Below are positions 3,302-51,315 of a DNA stretch of 64,000 nucleotides, in pieces. This DNA is from an uncultured Bacteroidota bacterium (GTDB lineage Bacteria; Bacteroidota; Bacteroidia; Chitinophagales; Chitinophagaceae). The notes under the pieces were generated by a model. That model ran no database searches. It saw nothing but the letters and a program-made list of their open reading frames with translations, and was not told the DNA's origin. The DNA lies in assembly GCA_903829015.1 (NCBI GenBank), contig CAIKOJ010000098.1, forward strand, positions 1,773 to 65,772, in the 5' to 3' direction. Each line of letters opens with the position of its first letter. The stretch's first letter is position 1. The translations under genes were made by a program, and so were the position numbers.

Positions 3302-4312
3302 ATGCACAAATTCCTGATTATTCAAACCGCTTTTACCGGAGATGTAGTTCTGGCAACTGCGCTTATAGAAAAGCTGCATAACCACTTCCCGGATGCTCAG
3401 ATCGATTTTCTGCTGCGAAAGGGTAATGAGGGATTGCTTAAAGAGCACCCATACATTACCAACCTGCTCATCTGGGATAAGAAAAACGGCAAGAACAAGA
3501 ATCTGCTGAAACTGGCACTTCGGGTTCGCAGCGAAAAGTACACCCACGTTATCAATCCGCACCGTTTTGCAACCTCTGGCATAATTACTCTGCTCTCAGG
3601 GGCTGGTTACAAAGCCGGGTTTGATAAGAATCCGCTTTCCTTCTGTTACACAAAAAAAGTACACCACCAACTATCAGAGCCATACAGTCAGGATCCTGTT
3701 CATGAAACAGACCGGAACAACTTACTGATCAGCGAATTTACAGACGGCAATAAATCGTTTCCTAAATTATACCCCGCTCCCGCCGACTATCAGCTTGTGA
3801 AGCAATATCAGGTAACACCTTACATATGCATCGCTCCATCATCAGTTTGGTTTACCAAGCAATTCCCGGCATCCAAATGGGTTAGCCTGATCAATGAACT
3901 GCCTGCAGAATACAAGATCTACCTAATAGGTGCACCAACAGATAAAGAACTCGGTGATGGTATACTTAATGTTACCACCAATAAAAATGTCGACAACCTC
4001 TGCGGCAAACTCAATTTCCTACAGTCCGCTGCCTTGATGCAGCAGGCAGCTATGAACTATACAAACGATTCAGCACCGCTGCATTTCGCAACAGCTATGA
4101 ATGCGCCTGTTACTGCCGTATTTTGCTCCACTGTACCCGCATTCGGTTTCGGGCCACTCCGCGATAATGCGCTGGTTGTAGAGGTAAACGAAAGGCTTGC
4201 ATGCAGACCATGCGGGCTACACGGGCACAGGCAATGCCCCGAAAAACATTTCAGGTGTGCAATGGACATCACAAATCAACAACTGCTATGGTGGACTTCG
4301 AAAACGACATAA
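3302..4312 (+). CDS. Glycosyltransferase family 9 (LPS heptosyltransferase-like)
   Basis: IIQTAFTGDVVLAT, NDSAPLHFATA and CRPCGLHG motifs; start moved to ATG 3302. Confidence 0.9.
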   Translation: MHKFLIIQTAFTGDVVLATALIEKLHNHFPDAQIDFLLRKGNEGLLKEHPYITNLLIWDKKNGKNKNLLKLALRVRSEKYTHVINPHRFATSGIITLLSGAGYKAGFDKNPLSFCYTKKVHHQLSEPYSQDPVHETDRNNLLISEFTDGNKSFPKLYPAPADYQLVKQYQVTPYICIAPSSVWFTKQFPASKWVSLINELPAEYKIYLIGAPTDKELGDGILNVTTNKNVDNLCGKLNFLQSAALMQQAAMNYTNDSAPLHFATAMNAPVTAVFCSTVPAFGFGPLRDNALVVEVNERLACRPCGLHGHRQCPEKHFRCAMDITNQQLLWWTSKTT

Positions 4313-4860
4313 AGAATTGCGTTGCGGTTTTGCAAAACGGTGGCTCGATTCTCTATCCCACAGAAACTGTATGGGGTCTCGGCTGCGATGCTTTGAGTGA
4401 GCAGGCAGTGGAACAGATTTTTAGTTTAAAAAACCGCCCAAAGGAAAAATCTATGATCATCCTTCTGGCCGAAGCCCGCGATATTCTGCAGTATGTTGCA
4501 GCACCGCCACCAGATATCATTGCAATAGTAGAGTCTTTCGACCGCCCCACTACAGTCATCTACGATGGTGCCCTCGGCTTCCCCGACAATGTTGTTAACA
4601 AAGATGGCAGCATAGCCATAAGGGTCACCACCGATCCGTTTTGCAAGGCACTGATCAAGAGATACCGTAAGCCGATCATTTCTACTTCCGCCAATTTAAG
4701 CGGACAACCCACCCCTGCATTATATACCATGATAGAACAACCCATCATTAACGGGGTAGACTACGTGGTAAAGCACCGACAGGGCGATACCACACTTAAT
4801 CCTCCATCCAGAATAGTTCGGGTAAGCGATGATGGGGATATTGAAGTGATCAGGGGTTGA
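4288..4860 (+). CDS. tsaC: L-threonylcarbamoyladenylate synthase (TsaC/Sua5 family)
   Basis: YPTETVWGLGC, KNRPKEK (KxR) and ISTSAN motifs; start at ATG 4288 overlaps the GT9 end. Confidence 0.85.
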   Translation: MVDFENDIKNCVAVLQNGGSILYPTETVWGLGCDALSEQAVEQIFSLKNRPKEKSMIILLAEARDILQYVAAPPPDIIAIVESFDRPTTVIYDGALGFPDNVVNKDGSIAIRVTTDPFCKALIKRYRKPIISTSANLSGQPTPALYTMIEQPIINGVDYVVKHRQGDTTLNPPSRIVRVSDDGDIEVIRG

Positions 4861-5990: not shown

Positions 5991-6602
5991 ATGTTGCTGC
6001 ATATCCATCCTGATAATCCTCAGGCAAGAAATATACAAACAGTTGTGGATTGCCTTAAAAAGGGAGGTGTCATAATTTACCCAACAGACACTATTTATGG
6101 CATTGGGTGCGATATTAACAATGCTGATGCAGTTACCCGAATTGCAAGGATCAAAAATATAGATGTAAAGAAAGCGCAGTTCTCCTTCATCTGTTCAGAT
6201 CTCAGCCACCTCAGCGACTATGCAAAAAGTGTGGATACCCCCATTTTCAGGTTATTGAAGGCTGCTTTGCCTGGACAGTATACTTTTATCTTACCGGCAA
6301 GCAAGCAGGTGCCTAAGATGATGAAAACGAAGAAAGATACTGTTGGTATTCGTATTCCTGATAACAAAATATGCCACGAGATTGTGAAGGCACTAGGCCA
6401 TCCCATTATGAGCGCTTCCTTGCCTATGGACGAAGACGTACCGTACCTTACGGATCCCGAGGTAATGCACGATGTTTTCGGCAATCTGGTGGATATTGTT
6501 ATCGATGGTGGTATTGGCAACACGCTTGCCTCTACAATTGTTGACTGTACCAGTGGTGCACCTGAGTTAATACGTGAGGGAGCCGGAAAGGTTATATGGT
6601 AA
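5991..6602 (+). CDS. Sua5/YciO family protein (YciO-like TsaC paralog)
   Basis: IYPTDTIYGIGC, TVGIRIPD; lacks KxR and has SASL instead of STSAN. Confidence 0.85.
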   Translation: MLLHIHPDNPQARNIQTVVDCLKKGGVIIYPTDTIYGIGCDINNADAVTRIARIKNIDVKKAQFSFICSDLSHLSDYAKSVDTPIFRLLKAALPGQYTFILPASKQVPKMMKTKKDTVGIRIPDNKICHEIVKALGHPIMSASLPMDEDVPYLTDPEVMHDVFGNLVDIVIDGGIGNTLASTIVDCTSGAPELIREGAGKVIW

Positions 6603-6699: not shown

Positions 6700-7581
6700 A
6701 TGAAGCATGCATATATTTTCCCGGGTCAGGGTGCGCAGTTTGTAGGGATGGGTAAAAACCTTTATGAGCAGAACGAAACAGCAAGAGCACTTTTCGAAAA
6801 AGCCAATGAAATTCTTGGATTCCGGATCACAGATATTATGTTCAATGGCACGGCCGATGAACTTAAGCAGACTAATGTAACACAGCCAGCCATTTTTTTG
6901 CATTCAGTAATACTGTTCGAAACCACGCCCGACCTGAAACCTGATATGGTTGCAGGGCATTCTTTGGGCGAATTCTCAGCTTTGATAGCCAATAAGGTTC
7001 TGTCTTTTGAAGACGGACTGAGGCTGGTGGCAAAACGTGCTGCCGCAATGCAACGCGCCTGTGAGATCAATCCATCAACCATGGCTGCTGTACTGGGGTT
7101 GGATGATGCAAGGGTAGAGGAAATTTGCAGGGAGTTTACTACCGAGGTGGTAGTAGCAGCTAACTATAACTGCCCCGGACAATTAGTGATCAGCGGCAGC
7201 AACGAAGGTGTAACCCAAGCTTGCGAAAAGCTGAAAGCTGCCGGTGCGAAACGTGCGTTGTTGTTGCAGGTAGGTGGCGCATTTCACTCTCCGCTCATGG
7301 AGCCGGCAAGGCAGGAACTGCAGGAAGCTATCGCAGCTACTCATTTCAATACGCCTACATGCCCCGTTTACCAGAACGTCGATGCAATGCCATATTCCGA
7401 TCCCCAGCTCATCAAACAAAATCTCATCAATCAGCTAACCTCACCTGTCCGCTGGACTCAGACTGTTTTGAAAATGGTAGAAGATGGAGCCACTCAGTTT
7501 ACTGAAGTAGGTCCGGGTAATGTCCTGCAGGGCTTGGTAAAGAAGATCAGCAAAGACGCACAGGCTGACGGGATTAGTTGA
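6700..7581 (+). CDS. fabD: Malonyl-CoA:ACP transacylase
   Basis: FPGQGAQ, GHSLGEFS and GAFHS motifs. Confidence 0.96.
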   Translation: MKHAYIFPGQGAQFVGMGKNLYEQNETARALFEKANEILGFRITDIMFNGTADELKQTNVTQPAIFLHSVILFETTPDLKPDMVAGHSLGEFSALIANKVLSFEDGLRLVAKRAAAMQRACEINPSTMAAVLGLDDARVEEICREFTTEVVVAANYNCPGQLVISGSNEGVTQACEKLKAAGAKRALLLQVGGAFHSPLMEPARQELQEAIAATHFNTPTCPVYQNVDAMPYSDPQLIKQNLINQLTSPVRWTQTVLKMVEDGATQFTEVGPGNVLQGLVKKISKDAQADGIS

Positions 7582-7635
7582 TTGGTTGATTGGTTGAATA
7601 GTTGATTAGTTGATTGGTTGATTGGTTGAATAGTT
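7572..7635 (+). repeat. Perfect 2x32-bp tandem repeat built of 8-mers (GATTAGTT/GATTGGTT/GATTGGTT/GAATAGTT)
   Basis: 7572-7603 is identical to 7604-7635; overlaps the last fabD codons and stop. Confidence 0.95.
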
Positions 7636-7696
7636 GGATAGTAGGATAGTTGTTGCAGTTTGTTTTTTTGATGTTTTCTTGATTTAATGCTGACTC

Positions 7697-8083
7697 ATGA
7701 GTGAATCAAATGCTCATCAAAGGTTTACTGACTTAAACGTTTGGAAACAAGCTAGGTTGCTGAAACTGGAGATTTATGAATTGATAAAGCAGTTTCCGAA
7801 TGAGGAAAAGTACGATTTGGTAAGCCAACTCAGGCGATCTGCCAGATCTGTCTGCAGTAATATTGCTGAAGGGCATGGCCGGTTCACCTATAAAGATCAA
7901 CTTCATTTTTGCATTCAGTCTCGTGGTTCATTGTCAGAAGTACTGAATCACCTGATCGATGCACATGACTGCAATTACGTTGACGAAACGAAGCTTAAAA
8001 ATTTTGAGGAAAAGATAGTATCTGTTGGGAAACTGCTAAACGGATACATCACATTTCTCCGCAATGCCGCCAACCAAAAATAA
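7697..8083 (+). CDS. Four helix bundle protein (23S rRNA IVP / S23-like family)
   Basis: FTDLNVWKQA...FPNEEKYDLVSQLRRSARSVCSNIAEGHGR...SRGSLSEV signature. Confidence 0.92.
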   Translation: MSESNAHQRFTDLNVWKQARLLKLEIYELIKQFPNEEKYDLVSQLRRSARSVCSNIAEGHGRFTYKDQLHFCIQSRGSLSEVLNHLIDAHDCNYVDETKLKNFEEKIVSVGKLLNGYITFLRNAANQK

Positions 8084-8120
8084 TGTCAGGCGCAAAAAAC
8101 AGCCCACTGGGATTCCCTCC

Positions 8121-8149
8121 CCAACCCATCAACTACTCAACCAATCAAC
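8121..8149 (-). repeat. Inverted copy of the 8-mer arm downstream of the four helix bundle gene
   Basis: Reverse complement GTTGATTGGTTGAGTAGTTGATGGGTTGG matches 7585-7613 at 25/29 positions. Confidence 0.85.
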
Positions 8150-8156
8150 AAAGTAC

Positions 8157-8810
8157 TCACCTTAAATCCACCGTTTCAACCCCTGGATGTTCCTTGGGAT
8201 TCCAGGCAAAATAAGTATCCGGGATATCTGTATTTGGTTTGTAATTGCTGATTGCAATTTTGTATTTATTACCGTTCTTCTCCCAGTAGTTGCCACCAAT
8301 GATCGTGGATGATGATTTTTCCACCATCAGCTCGATCTTTACCAGTTGCTTGCTTTTGTCGTTGGGTATCAGTTCTATAAGGTCACAGTTTTTGCCTGCT
8401 TCTTTTATGTCGCCTTTGTACGAATATTTATATTCCTTGTCGTAAAAGTTGGTAAATAGTTTGGCCGGAGACATAGACTGCTCCTGAGGGTTGTAGTTGG
8501 TTATCTGCACCTCTTTGGCTTCTTTATTGTACGTCCATACGGTTTTGGCATCACAGATTATTTCCTGCCCTGCTATCAGCACATGGTATTTCTGACCTTT
8601 CAGAGATACCGATCCTTTTTTAGAATCATTTACTTTGCCTCCTTTGCCCCCGGTAAGTGTCAGTGCAAAATTGGCTTTCAAAGATTTAAGCGCATTAATC
8701 TTCTTGCTTACACCCTCCAGTATTGTTTTTGCTTTAGTATCGTTCTGTGCAAAAACAGGCTGAACCATACTACACAAAGCGACCGCACTAACTGCTAATA
8801 ATTTTCTCAT
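8157..8810 (-). CDS. lolA: Outer membrane lipoprotein carrier protein LolA family
   Basis: Signal peptide, KTVWTYN..KEVQI motif, usual position downstream of ftsK. Confidence 0.85.
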   Translation of the reverse strand: MRKLLAVSAVALCSMVQPVFAQNDTKAKTILEGVSKKINALKSLKANFALTLTGGKGGKVNDSKKGSVSLKGQKYHVLIAGQEIICDAKTVWTYNKEAKEVQITNYNPQEQSMSPAKLFTNFYDKEYKYSYKGDIKEAGKNCDLIELIPNDKSKQLVKIELMVEKSSSTIIGGNYWEKNGNKYKIAISNYKPNTDIPDTYFAWNPKEHPGVETVDLR

Positions 8811-22807: not shown

Positions 22808-22815
22808 CAAAGGTA
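22808..22815 (-). promoter_or_regulatory. Bacteroidota -7 promoter element for the ABC-F gene
   Basis: TACCTTTG on the minus strand, 9 nt before the ATG. Confidence 0.65.
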
Positions 22816-22835
22816 GGTTGATAAGTTGAATGGTG

Positions 22836-23023
22836 GTTAGTAGATAGTCGTTAGTAGATAGTAGATGGTCGGGAGGCGTTAGTAGATAGTCGTTAGTAGA
22901 TAGTAGATGGTCGGGAGTAGTTGGTATTTAGTAGCCCTCCTTCGCTACAGCCGCCGTTGAAACTATGGCTGTTAATAAAAAAAGCTACGGCGGGTAAAAT
23001 AGTAGATAGTAGATGGTCGGGAG
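22836..23023 (+). repeat. 40-bp unit GTTAGTAGATAGTCGTTAGTAGATAGTAGATGGTCGGGAG, two perfect copies plus one partial
   Basis: Copies at 22836-22875 and 22878-22917, partial at 23000-23023; internal 7-nt periodicity. Confidence 0.93.
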
Positions 23024-23137
23024 GGGATTGGGAATTTCCCATTTTTAGCGATAAGTTGTAAAAGTGCGTAACTGATTGGTAATCAGGTTAATTGCCTGGA
23101 AAAATTTCTCAAAAACTACCCAAGTGGGAAGATCAGG

Positions 23138-23159
23138 ACCTGCCTGCCGGCAGGCAGGT
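23138..23159. repeat. Perfect 22-bp palindrome ACCTGCCTGCCGGCAGGCAGGT (REP-like)
   Basis: Sequence equals its own reverse complement. Confidence 0.9.
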
Positions 23160-23399
23160 TTAGGGATTTTAGGATTTTCAGAATGCTCTACTTTATATTA
23201 TAAAATATTTTACCGCAAGATTTTTAAAAGGTTCACAAAGGATAGATTGTTATAAAATCAACCGGAAGCAAACTTCCGTTTCACTTCCGGTTTCTTCCGG
23301 TGGCGGAAATGCCGAAAATGACGTAACTTATTGATAATCAATTGTATTTTGTAGTAATTGCGGGTTCGGTTGAAAAACCTGGATACCGGAAGCCGCAAA

Positions 23400-23449
23400 C
23401 CCCAAACCCCCGCCTGCGGTGAAGCTTCGGCGCAGGCCTAAAGGGGCTT
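23400..23449. repeat. REP-like hairpin GCCTGCG...CGCAGGC nested within CCCC/TAAAGGGG
   Basis: Stem 23412-23418 pairs with 23431-23437. Confidence 0.7.
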
Positions 23450-23662
23450 CCCCATATTAAGTAATCCGAAAAAATGAATTACCGATAGAGTCGCGTAAAT
23501 ATCGGATATGGACAGGAAATGGCAAAATCAAAAATCTATGATAGGACGTATGCTGCCAGTGATGGGACGGAGGGGGCCTATGATGGGAAAAAGTTTGAGG
23601 TGATATGCAATATTCTAAATTTGAATTTTTTGTTTATTTTTAGGTTGAGCGTGGTGCATTCG

Positions 23663-31812: not shown

Positions 31813-31922
31813 GGGGATTGGGAATTGGGAATTGGGAATTGAGAATTTGGGATTTGGGAATTTGGAGTTGGGGATTTGGGAGTTGGGGATTGGGAATTTG
31901 GAATTGGTAATTGGGAATTGGG
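31812..31922 (+). repeat. G-rich heptamer array (GGGAATT-like units) starting at the tex stop codon
   Basis: GGGAATT/GGGATTT/GGAGTT units over about 110 bp. Confidence 0.95.
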
Positions 31923-31970
31923 TTTGTGCGGAAATTTGTATTTTGTACGCCGTAGGGATGTGCCTCGCAG

Positions 31971-32001
31971 ACTTACGACTCATAACTTACGACTCTCAAC
32001 T
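31971..32001 (+). repeat. A/C-rich heptamer array (ACTTACG ACTCATA ACTTACG ACTCTCA ACT) abutting the crcB ATG
   Basis: Read directly from the sequence; ATG at 32002. Confidence 0.85.
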
Positions 32002-51252: not shown

Positions 51253-51315
51253 AAGTCGCAATTAGTACATAGTAATTAGTACATAGTAATTAGTCGTAAG
51301 TATATCCTGAGTCGT
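51251..51315 (-). repeat. Heptamer array overlapping the GNAT start (AATTAGT/ACATAGT units; AGTCGTAAGT)
   Basis: 14-mer AATTAGTACATAGT at 51260-51273 and 51274-51287, then AATTAGTCGTAAGT. Confidence 0.85.

Follow-up and report, generated by a model that had tools for sequence, protein, structure and literature searches.

Positions 7572-8152 of the DNA stretch analyzed in this study are one copy of a stereotyped and widespread cassette, in which a cargo gene for a four-helix-bundle protein is nested between two inverted periodic arrays (hereafter called the arms). The stretch, which we call the window, is 64,000 nucleotides of contig CAIKOJ010000098.1 and comes from a Chitinophagaceae-like member of the Bacteroidota. 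An earlier sequence-only reading of the window had described a four-helix-bundle gene packaged between such arms, and had suggested either that the arms fold the transcript into a stem like that of an rRNA intervening sequence (IVS) or that they mark a transposase-less mobile cassette targeting gene 3' ends. We found that a gene with two inverted periodic arms is indeed a recurring unit, and that the arms occur also at unrelated sites and in other phyla. As far as could be found, this architecture is general and undescribed. That is, no paper linking periodic arms to the PF05635/TIGR02436 family, to which the cargo belongs, was found in a literature coverage that was incomplete, so this is absence of evidence only.

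The cassette (581 bp) occupies the whole spacer from the stop codon of fabD to that of lolA. The upstream host gene, fabD (6700-7581, + strand; malonyl-CoA-ACP transacylase), was identified by its open reading frame (ORF) and a match to Pfam Acyl_transf_1 (E=3e-46). It ends with the codons ATT AGT and the stop codon TGA (7579-7581), all of which lie within the first arm unit, GATTAGTTGA. The upstream arm (7572-7652, + strand) consists of about 10 units of 8 nt with the core GTTGA (GATTAGTT/GATTGGTT/GAATAGTT). Its segment 7572-7635 is a perfect 2x32-bp duplication made of 8-nt units, and two more degenerate units follow up to 7652. Tandem Repeats Finder (TRF) reported a period of 32 with 2.0 copies and 100% matches at 7572-7636, and also a period of 8 with about 8-10 copies reaching 7652. 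C is absent from this arm, and stop codons are present in all three frames.

A T-rich leader (7653-7696, + strand), delimited from the sequence, connects the upstream arm with the start codon of the cargo gene (7697-8083, + strand), which encodes 128 aa. A sigma-70-type promoter scan of the leader, which is ill-suited to Bacteroidota, detected none, and the Bacteroidetes-type motif TAnnTTTG was not seen there by eye. The downstream arm (8121-8152, + strand) has about 4 units with the core TCAAC (CCCATCAACTACTCAACCAATCAACAAA), contains no G, and is an inverted copy of the upstream arm; the segments 7582-7612 and 8122-8152 (31 nt) are complementary at 27/31 positions (87%). The convergent downstream host gene, lolA (8157-8810, - strand), has its stop codon 5 nt from this arm. 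In addition, a terminator-like hairpin with a T-run is predicted, by a consensus scan only, on the lolA strand (8106-8125, - strand), within the cassette, where the cargo stop and the downstream arm flank it, and therefore transcription of lolA would pass the downstream arm first. Thus the main parts named from the letters alone were confirmed by TRF, by the ORF coordinates and by the profile matches given below: the perfect 8-mer array that supplies the TGA of fabD, the 128-aa ORF behind it, and the inverted arm near the lolA stop, for which the complementarity is slightly better than the 25/29 given at that time.

The design is general within the Bacteroidota. A metagenome scan gave 80 loci, and the 75 non-redundant loci with both flanks were used for an inverted-flank test. 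The inverted-flank score was at least 14 in 73% of these 75 loci, as compared to 2.5% of the 688 genes from this DNA that served as controls. Seen from the side of the arrays, 146 of the 171 (GTTGAnnn)3 arrays in 1.07 Mb (85%) served as an upstream or downstream arm beside such a gene and were oriented as expected. Across the arms the core is invariant, with GTTGA every 8 nt upstream (in the sense direction), TCAAC downstream, and three variable bases per unit; the arm unit of one locus, L066, is GTTTATTn. The median cassette is 505 bp with a median of 4-5 units per arm, and arm length spans 3 to 16 units. The cargo gene was co-oriented with the upstream gene in 38/38 scored loci.

The arms adjoin the ends of the flanking genes and supply stop codons. 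In the GTTGA class, 35/36 upstream arms carry stops in all frames, and 47/47 downstream arms carry stops in all frames on the opposite strand. The suggestion that the cassette targets gene 3' ends was therefore right in that the arms abut gene ends but too narrow, because whole spacers are filled, including those between co-directional operon genes, and the downstream arm often reaches the next start codon. Loci outside the paaB-paaC site, which is described below, add at least ~7 further sites.

It might be supposed that the arms are generic low-complexity intergenic repeats that lie beside the gene by chance. Short-period arrays with no such gene do exist elsewhere in the window (22836-22920, 31813-31926 and 51260-51294), and a relative carries an orphan array of 270 nt (L005). 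However, the motif (GTTGAnnn)3 with <=2 mismatches occurs 10 times in the window, where 0.13 is expected, and 8 of the 10 occurrences lie within the two arms, which are the only places of the window with an array of the GTTGA type. No inverted partner was found for any of the other arrays of the window. The inverted flanks at most loci and the placement of most arrays, as given above, also speak against an accidental association, and we regard this explanation as scarcely credible.

We then consider the pairing of the arms. The RNA duplex between the two arms of the window has an energy of -37.8 kcal/mol, as compared to -19.9 +/- 4.2 for 500 shuffled partners (lowest, -33.6; z = -4.3), and 0 of 1,543 other 41-mers of the window pair as well as the arms. 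When the whole region was folded, as had been proposed, the arms were paired in both the minimum-free-energy and the centroid structures, with an overall z-score of only -1.5. The complementarity is also specific to the locus. That is, own arm pairs score 20.5 versus 15.8 for cross-locus pairs, and the own pair beats 95% of the cross pairs in 17/55 loci; across loci, the duplex energy is -59.8 within a locus, -52.8 when arms of different loci are combined and -39.8 when the partner is shuffled. A conserved paired-arm design is thus established, in which the pairing may act in RNA or in DNA.

The cargo protein matched PF05635 with 124.5 bits (cutoff 33.8) and TIGR02436 with 111.4 bits (cutoff 24), which carry the names '23S rRNA intervening sequence protein' and 'S23 ribosomal protein'. 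The family is very large, 25,568 clusters at 50% identity matching at E<=0.001, and mildly basic, with an isoelectric point (pI) of ~8.4. To our knowledge, no function has been assigned to its members outside diversity-generating retroelements (DGRs). The AlphaFold model shows four helices with a mean confidence (pLDDT) of 90.8. In a Foldseek search with this model, the best match was Xcc0516 (2GSC; TM 0.85/0.96), followed by BT_0352 (2RLD; TM 0.75/0.88) and then bAvd (4DWL; TM 0.76/0.90). The structural kinship with the DGR protein Avd that the sequence-only reading had named thus holds in the form of an Avd-like fold. In the DGR ribonucleoprotein (8UB7), RNA is bound by bAvd as a pentamer. 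In contrast, the sequence scores are far below the cutoffs for Avd itself (NF033474, 23.5 bits versus 80; PF22296 bAvd, 23 versus 40). The cassette is adjoined by fabD and lolA, with no reverse transcriptase, template or variable repeat adjacent, and the only repeats there are the periodic arms. We therefore do not regard the cargo as a DGR Avd.

The presence of the cassette differs between close relatives, a comparison that the sequence-only reading had proposed. The relatives L001 and L171 carry arms at the same fabD-lolA site; the cargo of L001 is 95% identical to that of the window, and its upstream arm has 6 units, compared with ~10 in the window. Arms were found on the other side of fabD in L002, L088 and L089. 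In relatives with a 74%-identical cargo, the gene lies between Sua5 and fabD, and their fabD-lolA spacer is ~98 nt. Two loci (L089 and L090) have two cassettes, one on each side of fabD, with cargo proteins 79% identical to each other, and L091 has the downstream cassette together with an upstream site that keeps one upstream unit and an intact downstream arm. The same arms were present on every cassette copy found around fabD. On contig ERZ1426728, which encodes a LolA identical to that of the window, the fabD-lolA spacer is 148 nt and contains no four-helix-bundle gene. The C-terminus of FabD, ..DGIS, is identical with and without the cassette, and the native TAA is replaced by the TGA supplied by the arm. 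ORF-less arm pairs (hairpins) were also observed, between co-directional genes in L150 and L166. The combination that would have spoken against such a unit, namely relatives with an armless gene in vertical synteny together with family members that lack arms, was not what we found.

By FabD identity the hosts form two clades, one with the window, L001 and L002 and the other with L088, L089 and L091. The similarity of the cargo proteins tracks the host clade and not the site. We therefore think that the cassette was copied, or underwent gene conversion, between the two spacers beside fabD and was then differentially lost. For the same reason we rejected the idea that the copies on each side of fabD are orthologous by site.

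A scan of species genomes with FabD gave 80 loci, the best 80% identical, none of which was syntenic with Sua5 or lolA, and therefore there is no true empty site comparable among them. Only L066 among these loci had a family member beside fabD. In the metagenome contigs of runs X1-X7 there was no joint that skips the cassette, only assembly breaks, and the depth of the arrays was 10-15x that of the flanks in metagenomes. In run X1, which holds the window, the assembly breaks at the upstream arm (7601-7607), and the depth there is 10-15x that of the flanks. As a separate observation, locus L005 (4880-5330; a metagenome-assembled genome with a FabD 75% identical) has after the fabD stop the orphan array mentioned above, made of GTTGAAcn/GTTTAATC 8-mers; a second array (TACTCCCTATA-like) follows it, and no four-helix-bundle ORF is present.

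The most frequent site is inside the phenylacetyl-CoA oxygenase operon, where a cassette between paaB and paaC is common to ~35 species. The cultured Panacibacter ginsenosidivorans (CP042435, ~2.7735 Mb) also carries it. The upstream arm begins directly after the paaB stop. Relative to the cargo stop, paaC starts at -3 to +11 nt, and the two genes overlap by ATGA in four loci. The frame of paaC is open through the whole downstream arm in 32/35 loci, compared with 11 and 14 loci for the other two frames. The downstream arm is therefore translated as an N-terminal extension of PaaC (..STNQLINY..), and such an arm-encoded extension is seen in about a quarter of the PaaC homologues. The cassette-less paaB-paaC junctions have spacers of 25-79 nt, no arms, and a short native N-terminus of PaaC. 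This site looks like one old insertion that has been vertically inherited. The arms have been kept there while the cargo is only 55-68% identical, which argues that they are functional and not relics.

Two further observations were made in the same operon. In L124 (2116-2514), a second, more distant four-helix-bundle gene lies between paaA and paaB, with spacers of 10 and 4 nt and no arms. A third class of PaaC N-termini (..SSKVPPSEGFREAY..) has ~15 additional residues before the conserved LHLAD (P0138, P0146-P0149 and others); it may reflect a different insertion upstream of paaC.

The same gene-in-arms design, with other 7-8-nt units, was found in Cyanobacteriota, Gemmatimonadota and members of the Flavobacteriia, and thus spans three phyla or more. 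A tblastn search of plasmids gave mainly cyanobacterial matches, and nine loci were examined (six, then three more). The arm units of the plasmid cassettes (cyanobacterial, Riemerella, Gemmatirosa) are GGAGATAA/TTATCTCC, GGGTGTA/TACACCC, GGTTCAAG/CTTGAACC, GGGCAGGA/CTCCTGCC and CAGGAGT. Thus the units differ between lineages, yet the two arms stay mutually complementary. The plasmid cassettes are wedged between co-directional genes, and the cargo is co-oriented with the upstream gene in the five annotated loci among the first six, the sixth (L183) being unannotated. Among their sites are one after an integrase gene (Calothrix) and one that comes after lepA and an accessory gene of iron-sulfur cluster assembly, in this order. 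The plasmid pNPUN01 of Nostoc punctiforme carries a copy at 1.6-2.0 kb. Viral contigs, scanned with a broader alignment, gave the same picture, with arms of 7-nt units at ~12 of the 15 non-redundant loci. The presence of arms on other family members, which had been proposed as a check, was thus borne out on both plasmids and viral contigs.

Every case from other phyla shows a fixed polarity on the sense strand, with the upstream arm G-/purine-rich and C-poor and the downstream arm C-rich and G-poor. Insulation by stop codons was considered as a universal reason for this polarity and was rejected, because several G-rich arms from other phyla have no stops.

On two cyanobacterial plasmids the cassette lies within CRISPR-Cas operons, between cas10/cmr2 and cmr3 (L178 1198-1554) and between cas6 and cas4 (L181 1192-1551). 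The gamma and alpha plasmids of Nostoc PCC 7120 (L184 and L185) encode an identical four-helix-bundle protein, WP_010994075.1, with a (CTCTGCC)n downstream arm. These two loci share two aligned blocks that are 91-94% identical, one upstream and one over the gene and the downstream arm, and the stretch where the upstream arm would lie is not common to both. The gamma copy adjoins the 3' end of an ISL3 transposase gene.

From these results we think that the element is a selfish cassette of the IVS kind. Its two arms would pair with each other, probably within the transcript of the host, so that the insert is looped out; we give this reading about an even chance. Because the cargo is co-oriented with the upstream gene and no promoter was found, the arms are most likely contained in the host transcript. 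Arrays are many-fold over-represented in metagenome and metatranscriptome contigs; what the peat metatranscriptomes show is the presence of such arrays in RNA contigs. In the window, the promoterless cargo would be transcribed by read-through from fabD, and the arms would then pair in the host transcript and loop the insert out, in the manner of the terminal stems of ORF-bearing 23S IVS and of the hairpins of cyanobacterial short tandemly repeated repetitive (STRR) elements. With such looping-out, host operons would tolerate the insertion both within them and between them, and the upstream stop would come to lie beside the downstream start; the stop-rich arms would terminate incoming translation from either side. 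The arrays may lengthen and shorten by slippage, and the cassette may be gained, copied locally and lost at the DNA level, plausibly by recombination within the arrays. In this scheme we infer the pairing in RNA, the processing by RNase III, the role in coupling and the route of movement.

By analogy, the cassette would work most like an IVS or an STRR hairpin that carries a gene. The ORF-bearing 23S IVS of Leptospira and Coxiella burnetii resemble it in their PF05635 cargo, in their similar size, in the position of the ORF in the loop of a ~30-bp terminal inverted repeat, in being transcribed within a host RNA, and in their sporadic distribution. The Coxiella IVS measures 428-444 nt, carries an S23p ORF, has a terminal stem of 28 bp and is excised by RNase III; it has been proposed, though never shown, to have originated as a mobile element (PMC4990558). 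Terminal inverted repeats that form a long stem around an ORF are likewise present in the window (31 nt, 87%). In contrast, the window copy lies between protein-coding genes and not in rRNA, its arms are of the tandem 7-8-nt array type, and excision by RNase III would be harmful at the paaC site. The cassette was not classified as a 23S rRNA IVS, because it is not inserted in a 23S helix: Rfam gave no match in the window, rRNA included. A search of the PADLOC defence models gave no match either.

The cyanobacterial STRR sequences are also alike, being tandem 7-8-nt units in intergenic spacers whose inverted sets form hairpins between co-transcribed genes, and the cyanobacterial cassettes found here have heptamer arms of the STRR type. 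STRR sequences reportedly occur inside the RNase P RNA gene as well. Between hupS and hupL, STRR heptamer arrays form hairpins, for which transcript stability or translational coupling was suggested (PMC2670836). The window cassette differs in its 8-nt unit, in its Bacteroidota host and in that its arrays enclose a gene; in the searchable literature, STRR sequences are described without cargo and without a link to four-helix-bundle genes. We therefore did not assign the cassette to STRR sequences as originally defined (heptamers in heterocyst-forming cyanobacteria).

Several findings weigh against a selfish cassette that loops out of the transcript. About half of the 75 loci (~35) are the single paaB-paaC syntenic site, and therefore these are not independent insertions. 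One locus, L083, is an exception in orientation, because its upstream gene is divergent. Some copies lack arms, that is, the copy between paaA and paaB and the viral-contig loci L188 and L205, and the PCC 7120 copies have no upstream arm. The downstream arm at paaB-paaC is translated, and therefore cleavage of the stem would sever the paaC message. The arm mismatches are A:C and C:A in 78 cases versus G:T and T:G in 44, and the antisense duplex has a slight advantage in stability over the sense duplex (-62.3 versus -59.8, p=0.05). By the mismatch spectrum and the duplex energies, the complementarity shows no tuning to the sense RNA and may just as well be a property of the DNA; selection on the sense-strand RNA was rejected on both grounds. 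Furthermore, within the Bacteroidota the GTTGA core is invariant and the three variable bases pair only moderately, a pattern closer to a motif for recognition than to a pure stem. Thus, of the IVS-like stem suggested from the letters, the complementarity of the arms and their folding together stood, but the G.U signal expected on the sense strand was not seen and the downstream arm at paaC is translated.

These points lead to another explanation, a DNA element of the non-autonomous kind whose terminal inverted repeats are the arms. The periodic motif, or a folded single-stranded hairpin, would be recognized by an enzyme supplied in trans that moves the cassette, and pairing in RNA would be a by-product. 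The strand-symmetric complementarity fits this explanation, as do the unrelated sites of the GTTGA class (at least eight), the cassette-free fabD-lolA spacer beside an identical LolA, the excess depth of the arrays in metagenomes, and the particular arm unit of each lineage. The ORF-less arm pairs resemble miniature derivatives, two PCC 7120 plasmids carry identical copies, and one Calothrix copy lies beside an integrase gene. However, no target-site duplication was detected, the longest string shared by a cassette's own flanks being 3.38 nt versus 3.48 nt across loci (n=42); the arm boundaries are fuzzy, so that very short duplications are still possible. The immediate neighbours at the sites examined are ordinary host genes, and no transposase or recombinase was seen traveling with the cassette, for which no dedicated search was made. 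In addition, the arms vary from a few to many units without a unique terminal sequence, they are kept across many species at a vertically inherited site, and the orientation to the host genes is non-random. We consider this explanation unlikely.

Compared with miniature inverted-repeat transposable elements, repetitive extragenic palindromic sequences and bacterial interspersed mosaic elements, the cassette is alike in being intergenic, in having inverted repeats, many copies and ORF-less miniature forms, and in having no enzyme of its own. It differs in carrying a conserved gene, in the variable length of its periodic arms, in the lack of a target-site duplication and in its fixed orientation to the host genes. 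We did not file it as a transposon, because no target-site duplication was found. The earlier suggestion of a transposase-less mobile cassette agrees with the several unrelated sites and with the presence or absence in relatives. Many loci, however, are one vertically inherited site, and the term 'mobile' is based on distribution.

The invariant core also suggests a third explanation, that the arms are arrays of binding sites, in RNA or DNA, for the presumably pentameric protein of the cassette itself, which would serve autoregulation or an Avd-like ribonucleoprotein. The inverted symmetry would then come from binding at both ends. This idea is compatible with a stem in the transcript and with a DNA element. 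GTTGA is kept at a fixed 8-nt phase while the neighboring bases vary, different protein subfamilies have different cores, and the nearest characterized fold, bAvd, is a pentamer that holds a structured RNA (8UB7). The family pI and the median number of units per arm also point in this direction. However, unit and protein may co-vary merely because cassette lineages descend as units, orphan arrays and ORF-less pairs are kept where the protein is not encoded nearby, and the charge of the family is only mildly basic. We therefore hold binding by the cassette's own protein to be a rather improbable reason for the arms, to the same degree as the DNA element.

The window contains several other arrays and one related ORF, which we record here. 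At 31813-32001, (GGGAATT)x15 begins at the stop of an upstream + strand gene and is followed by (ACTTACGACTCACA)x2.2 just before an ATG (32003); there is no ORF between these arrays and no inverted partner, and the first array is G-rich, C-free and G-quadruplex-like. At 22815-23470, a gene-free stretch of ~650 nt upstream of an ABC-F-type gene (- strand) opens with two GTTGA-type units. It contains a perfect 2x42-bp array (GTTAGTAGATAGTC...), part of which appears again at 23000-23025, and then GC-rich palindromes, for example at 23133-23160 and 23412-23437. At 51260-51294, a perfect (AATTAGTACATAGT)x2.5 array adjoins the start of a - strand gene. Finally, there is a second Sua5/YrdC-like ORF (4168-4857) just upstream of a glycosyltransferase gene; it shares 26% identity with the first such ORF (5991-6602).

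STRR sequences and ORF-bearing rRNA intervening sequences have remained unexplained since the early 1990s. The design shared by Bacteroidota, Cyanobacteriota and Gemmatimonadota ties the four-helix-bundle family, the STRR sequences and the IVS into one testable system. We may even speculate, as a long shot, that the four-helix-bundle protein is the specificity factor of a phylum-spanning, hairpin-borne mobile cassette, in which the pentamer would bind its own arms and recruit a polymerase or recombinase in trans, like Avd, so that the cassette is copied into new spacers and into the helices of structured RNA genes. If this were true, it would unite the ORF-bearing 23S IVS, the cyanobacterial STRR repeats and the 'S23 ribosomal protein' family.

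The operons that harbor the cassettes are of practical interest: they serve fatty-acid synthesis, type III CRISPR-Cas and the degradation of phenylacetate. The ends of host genes are altered, in that the cassettes provide stop codons and extend PaaC at its N-terminus. This is relevant to annotation, to the calling of start codons and, since the arrays interrupt contigs, to assembly. Should the arms act on RNA, the cassette would be a natural device to insert a gene into an operon without polar effects.

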